64,000 bases of DNA from Chrysomallon squamiferum (taxonomy: Eukaryota > Animalia > Mollusca), in NCBI GenBank assembly GCA_012295275.1, contig CM022677.1, positions 23,746,001 to 23,810,000 of the forward strand, written 5' to 3'. The notes beneath the pieces were generated by a model, which was given only the letters and a program-made list of their open reading frames with translations, searched no databases and was not told where the DNA came from. Shown piece after piece: positions 7,432-63,935 of this stretch. How positions within the stretch are numbered: position 1 is the first letter of the stretch; every line of letters begins with the position of its first letter. The position numbers and the translations under genes were made by a program.

Positions 7432-8389
7432 AAGAAGAATGTTATTATTATTAATTAATTTATTAATTAAAACTATGAAGTTTTTTTTTACTGAAATTAA
7501 TACATAACGTATTATGTATAGTAATGGTAATAGTAACAATAGCAATAGTAGCTTCAGTAATATCAGTAGCAGTCTCTGCAAATGAATTCGTAGTAGCAGC
7601 GGTAGCAGCAGTAGTGGTAGTAATAACTGTTGTTGTTGTTGTTGTTGCAGCAGTAGTTGTATTCATGTTATTACAGGATGAATGAATTAAACGGATGAAT
7701 GATGACGGCTCTTTTTCCTATTTCAGTGGCCAATCTCCATACATTACAATACGCAAAACACTTAGATTTCCTGACAGTATGTTTGATTGCCACTTTATTC
7801 CAAATATCGATTTCTTACAGAAATTAAGGGATCTGTGCTGAACGAAAGATTGATATGCTATGAATACAGAATCACGTTTTTAAATAATGTATTACTTAGA
7901 ACTGTCCTAAATATCAGACGAAGCTTTGTGTTTGTACGTTGAATGGCTGCTTGGTCCGTGTCTGTTTGTTTGATTTTACGGTTCATAATTTAGTTTTTTT
8001 CTTTCTTTCTTTGCTTAATTCTTTCGGTTTTTAAGTATTTTCGTTGATTTCTATTTTTCGTATGTTTTATTTTATTTATTTATTTATTTATTTTTTTTTT
8101 TTGGGAAGGATGGCTATATTTATTGTTATTTGTTTTCATTCGAATTTTTTTTTTTAGCGTAACCAAATTCACTAGTAGTGATAGTGACAGCAGCAGTAAT
8201 AACATAACCAGATTCACTAGTAGTGTAACACAACGTGGTGTTTGGACCAGTGTTCGTAATCACTTACCTAAACTGCACTCATCTTTTTCAAAAGGTGACG
8301 CGTACTTTCCACAGTATTTCTTTACCAAATCTGAACCCCAGCCTGCAGGATAGAGGATCAGTCCCACAATGGCAATAAGACCTAAGAGA

Positions 8390-8439
<50 letters not shown>

Positions 8440-9779
8440 TGATGATGATGATGATGATGAGAAGAAGAAGAAGAAGAAAACAAAAATAATTAAAGATAAA
8501 ATTAATAATTCCAGTCCAACTGGACTGTAAAACAAAACACTTTGGTTAATGATTAATTAACGGTGGTCGTTTGTGTGGTTTTCACTAATCGTGTTGAAGA
8601 ACTACGCCGAGAGGCTGTGTCTGAGATAAGTACTAACTCATCACAATACCATCTGAGTAACATGCAGCCTTAGACTCGAAATTAAACTAAACCCTCGACT
8701 AGATCACACTAAAAATTTAGCTTAACCATATCACTCTAAAAATATAGCTTAACCATATCACTCTAAAAATATAGCTTAACCATATCACACTAAAAATATA
8801 GCTTGACCATATCACACTAAAACTAAAGCTTAACCCCAGGGACACTAAATCTGATTTCCTCAGTCTCAAGCAGTCATAAGCGTTGACTAACAGTTTGAAT
8901 TACGAATGAGTTACAGCTCAAGTGCATCATTCATGACAGCACCCATCCTTTCCGTTGTAATATTAGTGTGAGTCATGATCACGTGTCTCTGTATTCGACT
9001 CTCTAAGTGTTAACGGATACAGAACGGAGGAAGAAAACCTGACTTTATTGTTTGTGTGCGTCTCAACATAATATTACATCTATCTGTATAACTGAATTAG
9101 TCAATTCAGAGCATGTATGTCTTCCTGTGTATCCGAATGTAACTCATATACAGAGCAAATATGTATTTCATATGTATAATGTGTATGCATTTATATGTGT
9201 ATACAAATTTATGTGTGTATGAGAGAGCGCGAGCGTTTGAATCTGTGTTTGTGTTTATGTGCGCGCGTATTCGTAGTTGTTTGTTTTCTCGCAAACGTCG
9301 AAGTAAATCTGCATCCGAACGTTCCCGAATATAAACGAAAGAACCCGAAACACCAGAACTGTGATTCATTCGTATTAGACTTAATACATATTCCCTGCTG
9401 AACCTATCACGTCACAAAATCTGAAGTCCGTCTGTGAATTTATGATTCATCTTGAGAAATAAACATGTCGTGGTCTGGCTGTTCTCAGCGCACGCAGTTT
9501 GACTCCTCGCTTAGACGTTTTTAATGTCGACACGACACGCGACTGAAAAACGTGTTTTCTCTTTTTTTTAAAGCGAAACAGTTTAGAGTGTTCAGTTATA
9601 ATTAATAATTCAGATAAAACGAATTAAGATTAAAACAAAAATATTAATGTAATAATACGAATAATAATAGCGAGGTAATGATAATGAAAACGATGATGAT
9701 GATGATGATGATGATGATAATTGTCAATATCAAAATAGAAATATGTAATGTATATTACATGAGATAATAATAATAATAA

Positions 9780-9810
<31 letters not shown>

Positions 9811-10828
9811 AAGAAGAAGATTAATGACACTATTTCACAATCTTTAACATCACAGAAATATATAACAAAGAAAAGAAAAAAATATATATATCAATAATAA
9901 ATTGCATTTAAGCAAAAAGAATGGGCTGGTTTTGTTTGTAAATGTGTTTAGCATATTTCTGACCTAAAAAGAGTATAAATGTGTTCAAACTGAATACACA
10001 TGCCGTTGCCATTATGAGGTCAAATTTATTTTCCATTTGTCCATCCACGTTTTCGATAATGAAAGGACATTTTTAAGAGTACCAATGGTCTGAATCTGGG
10101 GCAGATTTAAAAATATCAAAGGAAATTTGTTTATTTTAGTTTTATCATCTAATAAAGTGTGTATGTTCTGTCGAGTTCAATAGAACATAGATGTTAACGA
10201 TTTTTAAATTTATTTTTCAGGAATGTGCTAATATGATAAAAATCTGGACTGCGATTTCAGTTAACATGATATTAAACACAAATAATAAAACGATTGCATG
10301 CTGAGTAAATGATTTGAAAAACAGAACACACATACGTCGTGTTTGAATCCTTAATTCCCAGATGTGCCCGTGGGATACATCAAAGTAACAGAAATAAATA
10401 AAGAAAAATATCTCAAAATTATTCGGTTAATTTGTGAAGATAGAAAACACATTGTTATATTCTGACTTATTTCTTCGAGAACTTTATGCGAACTATAAAT
10501 TCTTAATAATTATTATATCTCGGCGCTGTTCGGCTTAAATCGGTTTCGTTCGTTTAAGTTCGTTTACATTTCGGTTCATCTCGGTGTTAATGTTGAAGAC
10601 AAGATATGAAGATGACCTAGCATGTATTGAGAGGAAAGGTAAAATAATAATAATAAAAAAAACGTCTTTAAATTCTCATTAAAATGGTCATGTTAATGGG
10701 AATTTCAAAACTTTTTTTGTATTATTTTACTAGAAAACGATATTTTGTCTGAGTAATACACTGACAAATACATATAATAATAGAAAATATATAGTTTTTT
10801 TCAAAGACATACACAAACAAACATAATG

Positions 10829-10872
<44 letters not shown>

Positions 10873-11367
10873 CAATGCATATAACTACACAAATGTTACT
10901 ACAACAAAGCAGCCAGTCCTACCTGCAATACTCTGCAGCAGTCCGCACACAGTAAATATACTTTTACCACAAAGCGACCTCGTACACAAACTGATGATCG
11001 ACATCACTGTTACAAACACCAAGATTTGAGCCGTGCACGAGAAAAACACCAAAGCGGCTTTCCATGCGTGAGGAAATTCAGAATCGGGCATATCAAACCC
11101 AGTCACAAAATGAGCGCACGATTCTCGATCATCGATACTCCGATAGTGATGTAGACGAGTGCATCGATTAAAGATTCCGATGGTCGGACGAAAGATCCGA
11201 TCAGGGTCGATTCCTGTTTGATTATCGTAAATCGACAAGGAACCGGCCTTACGTGGCGTTCCGATCAGCCAGTAAGGGGAGGTAATCGAGACGGTGATCA
11301 TCATGAAGCTGGTGATGGAAAGGAGTGTCCATAGCAACGTCCAGCACGTGATGATGACGTAGCACAT
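7207..11367 (-). CDS. LHFPL2: LHFPL tetraspan family protein (LHFPL2-like), 233 aa
   Basis: Exons 11367-10923, 8381-8268 and 7349-7207 (702 nt, GT-AG, phase 1). Starts [17 protein letters not shown], contains [11 protein letters not shown] and [13 protein letters not shown], and ends [13 protein letters not shown], matching LHFPL2-type termini. Acceptor for a 5'UTR intron at about 11423. Confidence 0.92.
8703..8835. repeat. 27-bp minisatellite, about 5 copies, in an LHFPL2 intron
   Basis: Unit ATCACACTAAAAATATAGCTTAACCAT repeated with few substitutions. Confidence 0.85.
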
Positions 11368-11515
11368 TTTTCTTGTCTGCAGTTATAATGCCGAGACTCG
11401 GCAAATTCATTAAATTATAGACCTGTAGAAAGAAAAGAAAATTAATTAATCATTTAATTACGAAGAAGAAGAAGACGGAGAAATGTTTTTAAAACTAACT
11501 AACTAATTAACTGAA

Positions 11516-20232: not shown

Positions 20233-21316
20233 TTAAAGAAATATAAATACTTTTTATAACATAACCAAATAGCAGACAAACATATTAGTATATAACAAAA
20301 CCACATATAGCGAAACGTGCATATTCATGCTTACATTACAGAAAGGACTGAAATACAAGGAATGATATGCAAATATTTTACTACAGTAGCTTAGACGATT
20401 AGATTTAAATCATTGCAGAAAGTTGTTTTAATTATTACTGATATAGCTTCAAAACCATTTACTTGAACTGAAACGGCGTGTCATACAAGACTTCAGTCAA
20501 ATCTTCTCTACTGCGCCACCTGGCGTACACGTCTTCGTAAAAGGAAGGGTTGATAAACGTGCTGTGAATTTCCGGTTTTGCGTAATGGACACTTCCTGAG
20601 TCCAGGGCTCTGTGTTGCCGTTCTCGCTCTATTGCGTAGTACGGGTTGTCCAGATCGTCACACTGATAGGAGTTGACTGTCGTCTCCTCCGAGGAGCTGA
20701 AATAAATAAAATAAAATAAAATACAACAAATAAAATCCATAAAAAAAAAGAAGAATTATTAACGAATTAATAATGACACAAGTGAATCAGTGATTGAATA
20801 GATTAACCGTTCAAAATGAATCAGACGTCACAGAAATAAATTTATTAATCTACGACTCCTCTATGAGTCAATAATAGAACTACGTCATAATAGAAAATAC
20901 CTCATATCAGACAGTCGAAATGAGCGTAGTTTTCTACGCGTGGCTTATGAAATGTTACTGTTTTGCTAATTATGATTTTTTTTTTTACATCTACAGAATA
21001 TTTACCGTAACATACCGTCTGGAAAGTTTGGTACGTGGTTTGCAGCAGAACAGACGACATAAATTAACAGCAACGACGAGAATGATAAGGCCACAGCATC
21101 CAGACAGAACGCCTATCAACAGCTGTGTGGTCATAGGAATGCCGAAGTGACGTCCTCCTGAAATAAGTCTGTTATTATTAGTTTTAATTTCACTGTTGTG
21201 TTTGTTATGTTAGTTATTATTTTTTATTATTATTTTTCTTTTTTTGTTGCTGTTGTTGTTGTTATTTTTCTTTTTGTAATTATTGTTAAATTAAAGTCAT
21301 TGTTAAAATCATAATA

Positions 21317-21409
<93 letters not shown>

Positions 21410-21500
21410 ATCAAATCATATTGAGTGCATTCCGAGATTCCTTAGGGAATGAAAGAGAGAAAGATACATATATAGAGACGAATACAGAACGCACGCACAC

Positions 21501-21597
<97 letters not shown>

Positions 21598-21998
21598 TAC
21601 ATAGCCCTCCATCTGCACTTAGATGTAAATATTATATTTCATCAAACACAAACTGTTACTTGTAGCAATACGAAGTACAAGTGTCTGATACTTGAAACAA
21701 ACTGTGTGTGTACAACCACATAACCCTGCACACCTTGAATCTCGCAGTGAGGTCGTGATCCATTCCAGTGACCTCGACTTTCACACGTCAGCAGACTAGG
21801 ACCTCGCAGTATGGAGCCGTCGCGACAGCTAATGTGCACCACGGTGCCGACGTCGTGACTTGTGGTGCTGAGGATAATATGGTCGTCATAGAAACCGTGC
21901 TTAATGCCGATAGGTGGACATGCTGTTACAGGAACTAAAAAGTGTAAAGAAGAAAAAAATAAAGAGTAGGGTAAAGAGAATGTGTTATCAAAATAACG

Positions 21999-22083
<85 letters not shown>

Positions 22084-22297
22084 TAATTAGACAGTAAAGA
22101 GTTTTACTTACCGTCCACCGATGACGGGTTTCGATAATCCTGAGTCACATGATCACTTGGGTCTGTCGTCACTTCCGTCGAAAGGAACCGGTGACTTGTG
22201 TAGCGTTGCTAACGTTTCTCTGCGTCACTAAGATCGAAGGATGAATGATGCTTGTCGCCTGCATAGGCGGAATCGTGCTAGACAGCGACGTGTTCAT
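19588..22297 (-). CDS. Single sushi/CCP-domain transmembrane protein with a Tyr-rich cytoplasmic tail (SUSD3-like architecture); N-terminus uncertain
   Basis: Phase-consistent exons: 21934-21734 (CPPIG...ISCRDGSILRGPSLLTCESRGHWNGSRPHC, sushi), 21157-21016 (TM LLIGVLSGCCGLIILVVAVNLC), 20696-20463, 20101-20015 and 19660-19588 (...IDGLTTF*). The upstream exon ending at 22112 (GTAAGT donor) encodes a S/T-rich stretch from ATG at about 22297 (MNTSLSSTIPP) only if a 1-nt frameshift near 22180 is corrected. Confidence 0.8.
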
Positions 22298-22516
22298 TTC
22301 GAAACGTCTCTACATTTACGTCAATAAGTTTCTGTCCGTTTTAGTTATATTTCGGATTCCTATTACGTCATTGCGCTGTTCCGTCATGACGTCATAGTTT
22401 TATTGCTCCGGGTGATATCTGTGGATTTGTTGATATGAAGAACAGTCCAACACGGTTATATCTGAAAATAAATAAACGAATCCGCTAATAAGAAACAGAG
22501 AGAGAGAGAGAGAGAG

Positions 22517-34830: not shown

Positions 34831-35154
34831 TCCTGTAAAACCATTAGTATTTCACTTATTATATCTTCAATATATATATATCTATCTCTTCCTGTAAAAC
34901 TTCAGTGTTTCAGTTATTACATGTTAATGATAAAAACTCCAATATATCTGTTCCTGTAAAATATCCGTGTTTCAGTTATTATATCTTCACAATATATCTC
35001 TTCCTGTAAAATGCTTTGTGTTTCAATTATTATATGGTTAATGATAAAATCTCCAATATATCTAGTTCCTGTAAAATCGTCAGTGTTTCACTTAAGTGTT
35101 AATGACATAAATTCCAGTATATATCTTCCTGTAAAATCGTCAGGGTTTCAGTTA

Positions 35155-35160
<6 letters not shown>
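34831..35160. repeat. ~50-65 bp minisatellite, 6 copies
   Basis: TCCTGTAAAA...TTTCAGTTATTA at about 34831, 34890, 34952, 35002, 35067 and 35127. Confidence 0.8.
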
Positions 35161-37911
<2,751 letters not shown>

Positions 37912-39087: not shown

Positions 39088-39204
39088 TGTATGTATGTAT
39101 ATATGTATGCACGTAATAAAAGTAATACCTCACCAGTTAAAAACACAGTAGTCTTACTAATACGTTATAATAACAAATTTATTAAAGTCAAATTAACAAA
39201 ATGT

Positions 39205-41671
<2,467 letters not shown>

Positions 41672-42271
41672 CTGAAAATTCACGTCTTTCTTTCTTCAAC
41701 ATTATTATTTTATTATTATTATTATTATTTTTATATTATTATTATTATATTTTTTTTTTTTTTCATGCACGTCTGCTAGTCTGTACACGTTTACTGAGAC
41801 ATCACACTACTTGTAGCTCAGAGATCAACAAAATCTAAACCCAGGCAACACTGATTATACTTAAATTAGTTCTACTTAGATTTCCAGTTGTGCTGCCAGT
41901 TCAAATATAAAATTATTAAATTTTTATTTTTTTTATTTTTATTTTTACTTTTTTTTTTCACTTCAGGTTTCTTCTGATATCTAGGATAATGAACCAGTGT
42001 CATTTCCTTTTTTTGTTTTCAAGCAATTAAATTTTGCAGTAAAAGTATGCACCAGTCATATCGATGTTTATGGGATAAAAAAGATGGGACAGAAGAAAAA
42101 CAACAAAATGATTGATTTGACAAGGAAAACTGAACTTAGATTATTTTTATGATCGTTTTACATCTGCACTAACTGCAAATCAACATAGTCTGTGTTTTAA
42201 AGCATATAGAAAATTTGTGCTGATAAAGCGCAGATCTACACTTCGAGATTACCGTTTATGGAGAGAGAGAG

Positions 42272-44617: not shown

Positions 44618-45201
44618 AAAGATAAATCAGTCATATAGTGTTTTATTGCAGAAATAATTTATTTACAGTGGTTATATCTCGTAAATGTTGAACGTAATTA
44701 AAAAAAAATCAATGAATATTCATAATTTACTGCAACATGTCCATATGAACATTCATTATAAATATTTGTTTTATTTCGCGTCTGCATCCATACATACACA
44801 CGTGTATGTATACAAATACACATCACACATACATACAGACACATACGCTACGCAGACATACACACAGCGTCAAAAATAAACTTTAAAATAAAATAAAAAT
44901 AAATGTAAACTGAGTAATGCTTATAAGTCTAGAAAGACTGAGGTGACACTCAAAGGAAGACAGATATTGCATAATAAAACAAAGGCGGAACATTTTATAA
45001 AATAATGTCAGCAATAAATTAGTTTTATATATAATATACAATACACTGCCATTTATACAGCGTTTTTTTTTTTATTAAATCAAATTAATAAATACTTAAT
45101 ATATAGAAAGTAATGGTATTATATGGTTATATACATTTAAAAAAATACATGATTTTCTAACATGGAAATCTAGGTTATAATAATAATAATAATAATAATA
45201 A

Positions 45202-45232
<31 letters not shown>

Positions 45233-45482
45233 AAGAAGAAGAAGAAAAGAAGAAGAAGTGAGAAAAAAGGAAAAGAAAATAAGAAATAAAGGTCGCACAT
45301 TTTTGAATTGCATAATAAACTATGTAGATTAGATTATATTCAATACGTCATTTTATCACATTTCTGAAATCCACAGAAATCAAAGCACGCTAATCATACA
45401 CGCTGTAATGCACCAAAGTCCCCGGATGAACGTATCACATTGCTTCTCTCCCCTTCTTTTATCTGGTCACTTTTCTTTTCAT

Positions 45483-45515
<33 letters not shown>

Positions 45516-45772
45516 ATCAGTTAACAAAATTCGTTTCAAACGTTATAACCACCACAGATCTGATAAATATACTTTTGTGAATCTGGACCCGTGATGGTGT
45601 CGAATTATCGGTAACAAGAGAAAAATCAAATTACATGACTAGGTAAAAGTGGCCAAGTATATCGTATATCTGTAATGTCATTTATCTATATCTATATATC
45701 ACATGTCCGTATATGATTTATCTTCATACATCTTATATCATTTATCTTATCTAAAACATCACAGAGTCTGCT

Positions 45773-46101
45773 TCAGAATCGCGTGCAGTCTGATGGAAGG
45801 TTCGATACGGTCAACAGAACTTCAGGATCAGTCCATTTTTCGTTCGCCGGAACTATTAACATAACCTGTCCCGCGCATGCGCGTAAAATTTCATCGCTGT
45901 CTATTTCCGTTCCGTCTTCGGCAAGACACACTTTGAGAGGACCAGACAGTCCCAGCTTTTCACTTCCTGTGGTTGAAAACAAAAATGAAGCAGATGAGAA
46001 AAATCTGTGATGAAAATAGCGAATCGCCACATCAAGTTTAATAAAGATTTGTTAGACATCTGTCATGTTAATCAATATGGCAGAGTCATTATCTCGACTA
46101 T

Positions 46102-46141
<40 letters not shown>

Positions 46142-46696
46142 GAGGATTCATTACTGGAGTAAACAAAAATAAATAACTCACCTTTAGATTTTAATTCCTC
46201 CAGATCATCAGCAAACGTGAAAGTTCTTCTGTCTCTTGTGTGATTCCATATCTTATACATTAATCTGTAATTTTATATATATATCATGTTAACATTATTA
46301 TTATTATTTATTATTATTATTATTATTATTATTTTCTAATTTATTAAATTATTATTTTTTTTAAATTTGGACTTATCCATTTTTTCAAAACTTTATCGCT
46401 ATTCTGTTTACATTTTTGTGTCTTTGTCTTGTTCTTACATTATTATATTTCTCTGGATGTTTTGCATTTTCCGGACCGTTTCCATTTCATTCCCGACTTG
46501 TCCGGACCCTGAAAATGAAGGGTGAACAACACAAAAATGCATACACACATGCGCGCATTCAGATACAAAATTAATGCTATCCATCCATCTATCTAATCAT
46601 TTATCTATATATAAGTCTCTCTAGCAATCTATTTTTGAATATACATATTTTTCTATCAAATTATCTTATTGTAATATTATTAACATTATCGTCTAC

Positions 46697-46772
<76 letters not shown>

Positions 46773-46949
46773 TTTGTAAATAACACTGAATACCTGTTAT
46801 TAAACATAATATCTCCACCAGCATTTCCGTTAGGTAGAGCCTCGTTCTGAATTGCCATTATACTCCTCCTTGATTCTCTGCGAACCAGTTCATCCAGTGG
46901 ATCTCTCAGAGAAATTCTCTCCATAGTCTGAGCCAGTCGCTCTTCCCTG

Positions 46950-47004
<55 letters not shown>

Positions 47005-47645
47005 AATAATAACAACAACAACAACAACAATAATAATAATAATTTTAATATTTAAATTCAACCTGACGTTTAAGAACATCTGCAGATCTCAAAACATTTC
47101 TGTTTGTGACAAACGAAATGTTCTGCTTTCATTATGTATCACCAGATAGCTTTACACACAAGTATAAATAAACAAGCTATATTGCTTTTCATCATAACAT
47201 AAACAATACAAAAAAATATTCCAGCATTTTCTATGCCATCACATTACTGTAGTTCTTGATAGTTAGTCCAGTTTAGTATAGTTTAGTATTTATTTATATA
47301 AAGCTAGGGAATTAATATTATTGTTAAATTAGTGTTGTTTTTGTTCCAGTGACAGTTTATGTATCTCGTTTGTCTTGCATACTTATATTTATATGCATAT
47401 ACTGAGGTATGGATGTGTGTATGTATATGTGTGTATGTGTATATAAATATATTTATGTATGTTTACCTTTTTCTACGTTTAATTCGTTTTTTCCTCAAGT
47501 AACAGCCGAGAACAATCAAGAGACAAGTAATCAGAACAAAAATCAAACCAGACGCACACCCTAATATGATTATCTCCCTTTCAGTGAGCTTTTCAGTCTC
47601 TGAATAAAAAAAAAATACAAATTAAAAAAAAAAAAGAAAAATAAA

Positions 47646-47722
<77 letters not shown>

Positions 47723-48279
47723 TAATAATAATAATAAAATATAGCACACTACTGGAGATAACTGTGATCTAAACAAAGATATTTCTTTCTTTCCTCCTTT
47801 CATTCCTTCAGTCTGACTTGAACCCCGAACTCAAACTGATGTACAACATAACATTATAATCTGTATAAGATATAAACATGTAATATTTATGTGACTGGGC
47901 AGCCATTTTATTTTAAATCAGCGATCTGCAGTTTAGATATCAGTGAAATATAAAATAATTGATAGACTTATTTTTAGTTCGAGAGAAACGTTCTTTTTTC
48001 TTCTTTTTTTTTTTTTAATGTACATTCTGAATTTTCGCCAAAACTAACGTTAACTTTTAAAATCTCTGTAAAATAGTCAGTAGTTTATAAAACAAACAAA
48101 ACATAAAGAGAGTTCTGACTAGATCAGTTAGCTGTGTTGATTTCTCAAACGTTTATCAAGACAACTTTAAAACATTTCACTTCTGGATGATACAATAAGA
48201 CAAACATTGGTTAGAGTTTCCATGTACAAATACTAATTCATAGTTTAATTTATTTTCTTATCAACATTTTACCTGGCAT
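45773..48279 (-). CDS. Membrane-anchored CIDE-N domain protein (189 aa): N-terminal TM helix, basic linker and C-terminal CIDE-N
   Basis: Exons 48279-48273 (ATG CCA G, with an in-frame TGA upstream in the same exon, 48317-48273), 47599-47467 (TM IIILGCASGLIFVLITCLLIVLGCYL then RKKRIKRRKR), 46946-46794, 46264-46182 (YKIWNHTRDRRTFTFADDLEELKSKG) and 45966-45773 (SEKLGLSGPLKVCLAEDGTEIDSDEIL...MLIVPANEKW...CTRF*). Total 570 nt, all GT-AG with matching phases. LxEDGTEID and EKW are CIDE-N hallmarks. Confidence 0.85.
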
Positions 48280-49740
48280 TGCACCGTAAATACAAAAATG
48301 AGTTGATCACCGGTATTCTGAAAAATAAAACAAAGACAAAATTAGTTTGTAAGTTTTACTACTGCTTCTACTACTACTATTAATACTACTTCTACCACCA
48401 CTATTACTACTACTACTACTATTACTACTATTATTATTACTACTTCTACTACTACTACTACTACTACTATTATAACTACTACTATTATTACTATTACCAC
48501 TACAATTATGACTTGTATTTCAACTAGGACTACAATTACTACTACTACTGTCACTACGACGACTACACCATTACAACTACTACAACGATTAAGACTTCTA
48601 CTCCTAGTACTAATAGTACTGCTACAACTAATGTTACTATAACCCTAATTAATAATAGTTACATTTGAGTTTATTTAGAGAAAAAGAGAGACAGAGAGAC
48701 ATGGAGACATAGAGACAGTGAGAAAGACAGAGATATAGCGAGGCGTGAGACTGAATAGACGATTAAATATGTACATATATCTGTCGCACACACACATACA
48801 TAATACATACGTGCATAAATACATATATACATATGTGATAAATACATACATAGACAAATAAATACATACTGCATACAGAGAGACAGAAATATATAGCTGA
48901 ACAGAGAACTGTATATATATATAGTTTAGTAATCGTACATATGCATGTATGTATATACACAAAGAAGCGAATTTCTATTACTCGAGGATTTGTTAACTAC
49001 TAATATACGTAATATACGTAAATGTCTCCGTGGTAAATTTCTACGTCTGTAATATTAAGGGATTAACAGTGATATGAAACATACAACATACACAAGTGAC
49101 ATCCAGCAATAAGTACATTACAATACAACGTTAGATATCGTACACCGTAAAATTACTTTGTTTTCTTTACACCCCGATCTGTTCCATTCACAGCTAACAA
49201 GCAGACGTTCACTGATATGTAAAGCAGCCAACTCCAGCTATACATCTAGTTTCTATAGCTTATCTGATAGCCTGTTGAGTCGCCTATTGTTACGCTAGTG
49301 TAAGCTAGTGCATAATCATAATAAGTACGAACGCATAACGAAATAATAATGATTTGTGACCTGTGACCTCCTTTGAGACGGGGAAGACACGTGACCTGTA
49401 TATGCTGGATTATCTGCGTTGGTAATTAACATAGGCGTAGCGCGCATTACTCACAAAACACGGGTGCAAGAAACGAATACGGGTACAGGTCAAGGATGTC
49501 AGTAATTGTTCTTAAAATAGAGTTTTTATGCTTTTTCAGTAATTAAGTTTCGAGACAGAACAATTCTGAAGAGACTCTTAAAGAAAAGACAGAAAATAAA
49601 TAAATAAAATTTAAAAAAGGCAACTTAAACATAAACCTGTCTTCAAACAGCGTTCTAAAATGAGGAAAGTTAATTTACGATAGAAATCATTAACACACTA
49701 CAACTAATATAAAACCATAATTATAGTAATACAGTTTAGT

Positions 49741-55968: not shown

Positions 55969-56085
55969 CTGTATAATGCGCTATTCTGGTTTAAACGTGA
56001 GAAAACTTCTACCTTGTACAATACAGTCTTCCTGGTGAATTATTTTAGGGTGTGTGTCGTGTTGTTTTCAATATATAAATTACAG
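55969..56085 (-). promoter_or_regulatory. Candidate TATA promoter and non-coding first exon, possibly of the TM-CIDE-N gene
   Basis: Minus-strand TTTATATATT at about 56070-56079, followed about 100 nt downstream by a strong donor CAG|GTAAGC at 55969/55968. Confidence 0.4.
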
Positions 56086-57256: not shown

Positions 57257-57774
57257 TATGTAAGGTCGTATCTACATGCATTTATCTATGTTTATATGCC
57301 TGTTACATATAGATTTGATACGATTATAAATAATAATTGATACAAATATTATAAATTCACGAAAAATCAAAAAAAAAAAAGCTTTTATCGATATCATAGA
57401 CAGGAAAGTGAAAAGTCACACATCTGACACGCTTGAGTGAACACTGTGTTTATTATATACATATAATCAAACAACCATAAAAATGTATAGCTGACAACAT
57501 CTTTATTTGTTGTTATAAATAATTCGAGAACGTTAAGAACAATGAATTAACGTATAATAGTAACTGCTTAAAATACGTGACTTTACAAAAACGCTACACA
57601 CTAATTATTCTGTGAAATAACACAAGGGTGTGGCCGCTTTCATCCTTTGCATTTGTAAACTGGTTAGATGATGAAGTGTGTGTTTTCACAGTGTGCAGTG
57701 ACACGCCCTGTGTATCTGTCTTCTGCTCTACGCGTTAATCGGCTAGTCACGTGATTCTTGCATCTTTAGGCGAA

Positions 57775-63935
<6,161 letters not shown>

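Follow-up and report, generated by a model that had tools for sequence, protein, structure and literature searches.

A predicted membrane-anchored CIDE-N protein of Chrysomallon squamiferum, a Sushi-less member of an apparently undescribed mollusc Sushi-transmembrane-CIDE-N family

What would a CIDE-N domain do behind a transmembrane (TM) helix? The domain is familiar from soluble apoptotic nucleases, their inhibitors, the Drosophila Dreps and lipid-droplet proteins. A stretch of 64,000 nucleotides of Chrysomallon squamiferum (assembly GCA_012295275.1, contig CM022677.1, positions 23,746,001 to 23,810,000; hereafter the window, whose numbering is used throughout) holds at 45773-48317 a minus-strand gene whose product would carry one TM helix followed by a C-terminal CIDE-N. 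We find that this gene is real, expressed and conserved, and that it gives a known domain a receptor-like architecture that is apparently undescribed.

The gene has five minus-strand exons with AG/GT flanks throughout and intron phases 1, 2, 2, 1, encoding 189 residues and a stop. The five phase-matched exons put forward in an earlier note, made from the sequence alone, are confirmed by their ends, their phases and the open frame. In order of transcription the features are:

55969-56001, minus strand: 3' end of an upstream non-coding exon, spliced to exon 1 from a donor at 55969 (CAG/GTAAGC); matches the loose ends of two of three RNA contigs with 0 mismatches.
48273-48317, minus strand: exon 1, 5' untranslated region (UTR) containing an in-frame stop; translation starts at the ATG at 48279, which leaves 7 coding bases in this exon, phase 1.
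47600-48272, minus strand: intron 1 (673 nt), the point at which relatives' proteins imply a Sushi exon; none is detectable in this gene.
47467-47599, minus strand: exon 2, a short acidic N-flank followed by the predicted TM helix (residues 12-34, 47573-47505) and a basic stop-transfer run.
46794-46946, minus strand: exon 3, encoding the conserved juxtamembrane motif, which is helical and has R-R-x-S type sites (residues 48-76, 46945-46859), and after it a variable spacer.
46182-46264, minus strand: exon 4, encoding the first half of CIDE-N with its basic face; K102 (46254-46252) aligns with Drep2 K13.
45773-45966, minus strand: coding part of exon 5, second half of CIDE-N, EDGT acidic motif (45919-45908), T-R-F terminus, stop.
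45525-45772, minus strand: 3' UTR, as far as the RNA contigs of the five exons cover it.

The stop in exon 1 is a TGA upstream of the ATG and in frame with it; therefore the N-terminus cannot be extended in any transcript that uses exon 1.

Five public runs overlap the region, four RNA runs from one study and one run of unrecorded kind. Three of the four RNA runs and the run of unrecorded kind were placed on positions 45000-48660. The RNA support consists entirely of assembled contigs from one study. Each of the three RNA runs gives one contig (941, 980 and 1192 nt) with all five exons in order and contiguous record coordinates. The junctions expected in the earlier note (48273>47599>46946>46264>45966) are present in all three; two were tabulated directly, and the joints between exons 1 and 2 and between exons 2 and 3 were read from the contiguous coordinates. 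The run of unrecorded kind shows intron coverage and none of the gene's splice joints over the same positions. Upstream, two of the three contigs run on into the exon ending at 55969. The third joins exon 1 to a sequence matching 49022-49051 (3 mismatches in 30), with no GT or donor at the joint in the window; the match may reflect an alternative 5' exon, a second allele or a copy of a repeat. Among seven coding variants in the contigs six are synonymous (p 0.0007 against a chance expectation of 22.5%, p 0.009 against 35%), and the seventh restores a Ser found near the C-terminus in relatives. The gene is transcribed and spliced as modelled.

The Pfam CIDE-N profile (PF02017) matches exon 5 alone above its cut-off of 23.5 bits (E 3.2e-6, 27.5 bits), exon 4 giving E 0.0073. 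It reaches 52.4 bits in the closest relative, Gigantopelta aegis XP_041356359.1 (187 residues, 73.8% identity over 183), which likewise has no ectodomain. The domain call of the earlier note thus holds, and AlphaFold and Foldseek agree on the fold. In the AlphaFold2 model, computed for the G. aegis orthologue and not for the window protein, CIDE-N is an alpha/beta roll at a predicted local distance difference test score (pLDDT) of about 95, preceded by a continuous helix at residues 7-58, a second helix at 61-80 and a low-confidence spacer. With this model Foldseek ranks the CIDE domain of Drep2 first (4d2k, E 1.5e-7, root-mean-square deviation 1.2) and FSP27 and CIDE-A domains 3rd to 5th; 4d2k is also the best solved structure in a sequence search among CIDE entries (E 9.4e-13). 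In the ESM Atlas the structure matches of a snail and an oyster protein of the family are canonical CIDE clusters; neither has a usable feature match there, and small clusters cannot appear in that resource.

CIDE domains pair through two charged faces, and Drep2, Drep3 and Drep4 are among the nearest known systems, Drep2 being the best match by sequence and by fold. In the window protein the faces carry net charges of +4 (basic) and -6 (acidic). The head-to-tail interface of Drep2 comprises 12 listed residues, and the K13D change gives a monomer (PMC6292858); at 9 of the 12 the window protein has the same residue or a conservative replacement. All 14 gastropod relatives keep K13, W15, R19, K/R22 and E-D-x-T-E. 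The claim that the acidic patch and the N-terminal basic residues are both retained is therefore borne out.

The protein has a single hydrophobic segment, residues 12-34 (mean Kyte-Doolittle 2.83), flanked by a charge of -2 on its N-side and +7 on its C-side, and the hydropathy scan gave no further one. By hydropathy alone these are the features of a type III membrane protein (N-out, no signal peptide, positive charge behind the helix). The N-out topology proposed earlier is supported by this charge bias and by the N-side of relatives, which carries Sushi domains with sequons or signal peptides. We predict, with good support, a short N-terminus outside and the remainder of the protein in the cytosol. 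Behind the helix, the juxtamembrane motif (residues 46-74 of the G. aegis orthologue) is 79% identical over 11 relatives, while CIDE-N reaches 58% and the TM segment 36%, a comparison in which the word-based search for relatives may favour those retaining the motif; it is less well kept in pulmonates and absent in bivalves. The juxtamembrane Cys residues suggested as palmitoylation sites fared less well, their position not being matched in G. aegis. The C-terminus is S/C-T-R-F in the window protein, G. aegis and Haliotis, and a terminal F or L ends 20 of 23 rows although the tails differ. PDZ domains bind C-terminal motifs with a hydrophobic last residue, so that this C-terminus could be a PDZ ligand.

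Does the architecture stand alone? The earlier note saw a membrane adaptor comparable to LAT. The membrane-anchored CIDE-N stands; the stand-alone invention does not, the window protein being the Sushi-less form of a mollusc-wide Sushi-TM-CIDE-N family. It shares with that family a single TM, the juxtamembrane motif, a C-terminal CIDE-N and alignment over the full length, with 42-74% identity to eight of nine gastropod-type relatives over about 180 residues and an alignment of 144 residues with the ninth. A search with the orthologue gave 12 matches among 536 candidates. TM and CIDE-N are present in all 12, and 11 have a Sushi-like N-terminus and no signal peptide (Pfam Sushi above cut-off in 5, any match in 8). 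The full-library search gave 115 matches, names being looked up for 10, and a profile search gave 18 among 7992 candidates. The search for TM and CIDE-N architectures among lophotrochozoans that the earlier note had advised thus succeeded in both gastropods and bivalves. Fourteen gastropods have named members (Gigantopelta, four Haliotis, Patella, Lottia, Littorina, Babylonia, Nucella, Lymnaea, Physella and two Biomphalaria), and most of the 13 other than Gigantopelta have a Sushi domain before the helix. The proteins of the seven bivalves with named members (two Magallana, Argopecten, Mizuhopecten, three Mytilus) have three tandem CIDE-N, usually preceded by a signal peptide, one or two Sushi and a TM; the M. 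californianus model begins at the TM.

In all, 50 of 156 collected proteins have a hydrophobic segment ahead of CIDE-N, a count that includes many isoforms and one probably unrelated protein. P0047, with a hydrophobic stretch before a canonical CIDE-N, lacks the family features and is not taken as a member. Outside gastropods and bivalves these non-exhaustive searches, in which several unnamed members stay unplaced, gave no named member but one record labelled Digyalum oweni (P0018). It clusters at 90% with the Littorina protein and is likely a host transcript contaminating a parasite data set. Three unnamed members (P0054, P0031, P0040) either combine a signal peptide, Sushi and TM with a single CIDE-N or carry divergent CIDE-N in tandem; they may widen the range of the mollusc family.

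We found no literature description of a TM-CIDE-N architecture, although supplements, domain tables of genome papers and subscription journals could mention the family. Within the searched literature the earlier remark that it is not known from characterised proteins is borne out, and the Sushi-TM-CIDE-N receptor family is apparently undescribed. The note's view that known proteins carry CIDE-N at the N-terminus has to be relaxed, since Drep3 carries it mid-chain (PMC8647176). Family proteins are already in databases under automatic names, so that the novelty lies in the architecture and the family, not in the sequence; the RefSeq name of the G. aegis protein, "CIDE-B-like", is a best-hit label.

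The window protein is a Sushi-less variant, like that of G. aegis and Physella X2. A family Sushi profile run over six frames of the whole window detects one exon, at 21920-21741 (34.6 bits, next best 3.6). In the window, neither profile nor tblastn finds a Sushi exon in or upstream of the CIDE-N gene, the RNA joins exon 1 to the TM exon, and a decayed Sushi exon, sought with stops read as X, was not found. The sole Sushi exon lies in a separate gene, and therefore the CIDE-N gene has lost its own. That separate gene (20460-22461, minus strand) has a Ser/Thr-rich stretch with stops in each frame as read, the Sushi exon, a TM exon and a Tyr-rich tail, and no CIDE-N. Its Sushi exon lies 24 kb downstream of the CIDE-N gene and is 41% identical to the Sushi of Babylonia. 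This neighbour hints at a local duplication as the origin of the Sushi-TM half. In Physella, Sushi-containing and Sushi-skipping forms are annotated as isoforms; Crassostrea isoform X3 was rejected as a further case because its start falls inside the Sushi domain. For signal-peptide-less Sushi-TM proteins such as SUSD3 a literature search gave no usable precedent.

Where does this CIDE-N come from? Reported signatures are VDDxxYF for Dffa, LPxxGSR for Dffb, RPxRV for Cide, and EDGT, the Cide proteins being vertebrate-only (PMC2426694). In CIDE-N of the mollusc family the first three are absent and EDGT alone is present (residues 142-145 of the window protein). Ile-Leu stands where VDDxxYF has Tyr-Phe, and Tyr-65 is found in 13 of 13 DFF-C rows against 0 of 14 gastropod rows. 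The tree was built from 118 of 134 extracted domains over 81 columns; isoforms were excluded first, then 16 fragments, near-duplicates and misaligned rows. Its labels Drep2-like and CIDE-like were assigned by eye, and no row is labelled DFF40. One branch, starred in the tree (97/95), unites DFF-C, CIDE-A/B/C-like and Drep2-like rows; every TM-linked domain lies outside it, among non-canonical CIDE-N proteins. The approximately unbiased (AU) test rejects neither a clade of gastropod and Drep2-like domains (p 0.075) nor a single origin for all TM-linked CIDE-N domains (p 0.227).

The non-canonical invertebrate proteins, some of them transposon-like (e.g. Frankliniella KAK3915709.1), share with the mollusc family this side of the tree and an aliphatic residue in place of Tyr-65. 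They differ in being soluble, with a mostly N-terminal CIDE-N fused to zinc fingers, CARD, NYN or a common unnamed C-terminal region. Several tree neighbours share their C-terminal region with a protein bearing a Transposase_21 match that is weak and below cut-off (E 1.3e-5), which makes a transposon donor of the mollusc CIDE-N possible. P0046, P0049, P0071, P0073 and P0041 have a non-canonical CIDE-N fused to CARD (1021 residues), an NYN nuclease domain or zinc fingers, or with the weak Transposase_21 match. We found no description of these architectures, whose proteins are possible partners or donors.

What, then, could the domain do beneath a membrane? The explanation we favour, at about even odds, is a membrane scaffold whose CIDE-N would chain head-to-tail once the protein is crowded in the membrane. 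In the ancestral form the extracellular Sushi would bind a ligand or partner and cluster the receptor. In the window form clustering would have to come from the TM and juxtamembrane helix, from a co-receptor, or from a PDZ-type scaffold on the hydrophobic C-terminus. The raised local concentration would then link basic to acidic faces, as in the solved structures of Drep2, Drep3 and Drep4, and membrane clustering could drive such chains because CIDE assembly is concentration-dependent (PMC8647176). Short arcs or rings might form beneath the membrane, their free ends could recruit other CIDE-N proteins, and kinases might adjust assembly through the R-R-x-S sites of the conserved helix. Drep2 itself localises to the postsynaptic membrane (PMC4229683). 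The word "transmembrane" is absent from the main text of that paper, whereas the window CIDE-N sits C-terminal to an integral helix. It also differs from Drep2 in lacking K23 and the Y-F pair, and the tree does not group it with the Drep2-like rows, although a joint clade is not rejected.

The bivalve tandem domains bear on this scaffold. In domain 1 both faces are present. Domain 2 retains E/D/T of the acidic motif in all 9 rows, yet in 7 of the 9 Asp takes the place of K13. In domain 3 all 8 rows have K13 and the acidic motif is lost. Of the indirect signs that the mollusc family uses its faces head-to-tail, this complementary loss is the strongest. Folding was less telling. A three-copy complex of the G. 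aegis cytosolic region (40-187) was predicted at a score of 0.30 against a mark of 0.32, with the alignment unused and controls not folded, and speaks neither for nor against chaining. In the AlphaFold2 model of a three-domain protein from a mussel each domain takes the CIDE-N fold, at a predicted template modelling score (pTM) of 0.45; the packing of the three is therefore not readable from it.

Several points weigh against the scaffold. Drep2 residue K23 is not kept (Thr in the window protein, Lys in 2 of 14 gastropods), nor is Y65 (Ile in the window protein, Tyr in none of the 14). Interface residue N72 is a gap, and the residue before EDGT is Ala in the window protein only, being Glu in 14 of 14 relatives. 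Solved CIDE filaments are three-dimensional helices of 8-10 subunits per turn and a rise of about 50-57 Å (PMC6292858, PMC8647176), and therefore a membrane-tethered chain would need to stay short or flat. The two charged faces would also fit binding solely to other CIDE-N proteins. Lastly, the juxtamembrane helix exceeds CIDE-N in conservation and is absent in bivalves, so that the function in gastropods may centre on the helix.

A wider reading, possible and in our judgement somewhat less than probable, is that molluscs have a receptor class signalling through CIDE-N polymerisation, just as TIR and death domains serve Toll-like and death receptors. A Sushi-TM gene would have captured a non-canonical, possibly transposon-borne CIDE-N before the gastropod/bivalve split. 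In bivalves it would have become three domains, one with both faces and two with a single face each, by which the chain is capped or branched, and the window lineage would have dropped the ectodomain and kept a ligand-independent membrane nucleator. Receptors and adaptors that signal through polymerising TIR or death domains are known. The likeness to Toll-like receptors, Fas and TNFR1 lies in an ectodomain, a single helix and a cytosolic self-associating module, and in the existence of shortened membrane-anchored forms. The module here differs in being a CIDE-N, a ubiquitin-like fold near PB1 by Foldseek, and we found no described CIDE-N receptor.

The protein could instead be a membrane tether or sink for the apoptotic nuclease system, its acidic face binding CAD (DFF40) or its basic face ICAD (DFF45) or a Drep-like protein, with no self-assembly; this we hold unlikely. 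A molluscan Dff-A with CIDE-N does exist (PMC3634015, and a Bradybaena match), the face charges are near those of DFF-C proteins (+4.4/-6.4 vs +4.4/-7.4), and the clade with Drep2-like domains was not rejected. Yet the absence of the Dffa, Dffb and Cide signatures, together with a position outside the canonical clade, weakens the tethering of CAD/ICAD-type partners that the earlier note had also envisaged. Tyr-65 divides the DFF-C rows from the gastropod rows, and the starred branch excludes the mollusc family, in a tree with no labelled DFF40. DFF45 and DFF40 have the CIDE-N fold and the EDGT motif too. Scans of the mollusc family gave no DFF-C match, so that it differs from DFF45/ICAD and Drep1 in this as in its membrane anchor; there is no DFF40 nuclease match as in DFF40/CAD and Drep4, the window protein ending 19 residues past CIDE-N.

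It seems improbable that in gastropods the work is done by the juxtamembrane helix together with the hydrophobic C-terminus, the protein serving a channel, transporter or scaffold as its anchor or auxiliary subunit, while CIDE-N does no more than dimerise or bind one partner. Such a role would fit the identity of the motif across the 11 relatives (79%, vs 58% and 36%) and a Sushi domain that is dispensable in the window lineage and in the Physella isoform. Bivalves, however, have no motif and yet have tripled CIDE-N, both faces are invariant in gastropods, and the motif, weaker in pulmonates, may owe part of its showing to the word-based search.

Vertebrate CIDEA, CIDEB and CIDEC offer another comparison, as membrane-associated proteins with a CIDE-N. 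We consider it quite unlikely that the window protein is like them an organelle-contact protein, in which CIDE-N condensation from an endoplasmic reticulum or vesicle membrane would hold membranes or lipid droplets together. A bilayer-spanning helix is unsuited to the monolayer of a droplet. The window protein has neither a CIDE-C region nor RPxRV and its domain order is reversed, and relatives' Sushi ectodomains with sequons and bivalve signal peptides look cell-surface-like. In favour of such a role are the reported requirement of droplet fusion for phase separation of the CIDEC N-terminal region (PMC12022687) and the Foldseek ranks of FSP27 and CIDE-A.

That the thrombospondin-repeat gene upstream (eight phase-1 exons, 58.0-63.9 kb) ends in the TM and CIDE-N exons and so encodes a type I TSP1 receptor, if only as a minor isoform, is very improbable: the strand is the same, phase 1 matches at the TM exon and the TSP1 exons lie beyond the 45000-48660 covered by RNA placement, but exon 1 with its in-frame stop is joined to the TM exon in all three contigs, two of them reach the exon ending at 55969, downstream of the TSP1 exons, the TSP1 gene has its own candidate stop exon at 57785 and an AATAAA at 57507, and Pfam finds no TSP1 in the relatives scanned.

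The TSP1 gene itself (58015-63933, minus strand) has at least 8 TSP1-type phase-1 exons, with Pfam TSP_1 in 2 of the 4 scanned, and runs past the window end. The 3' end of one of them (61301-61489) is an 18-bp tandem repeat of 10.5 copies with 94% matches; every copy has a GT donor-like site, and the frame is open throughout. Also on the minus strand are a trypsin-like serine protease gene at 39200-41680 (Pfam Trypsin E 2.2e-9, first catalytic exon), an LHFPL-family tetraspan gene at 8268-11422 (Pfam L_HMGIC_fpl E 4e-9) and, at 35140-36368, candidate exons of another small single-pass protein with a Lys-rich tail. On the plus strand, opposite to the TSP1 gene, 2221-2297 is a short candidate exon with a TSP1-like W-x-x-W start.

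The role of CIDE-N filaments beyond DNA fragmentation is stated as open (PMC8647176). The family described here is conserved in gastropods and bivalves, farmed oysters, mussels, scallops and abalone among them. Nature thus supplies the means of testing it: a single domain with two faces, tandem domains with one face each that bear the K13D change known to break the Drep2 chain, and members that have or lack an ectodomain. As integral membrane proteins with one or three cytosolic CIDE-N, the family would carry the domain into transmembrane signalling.

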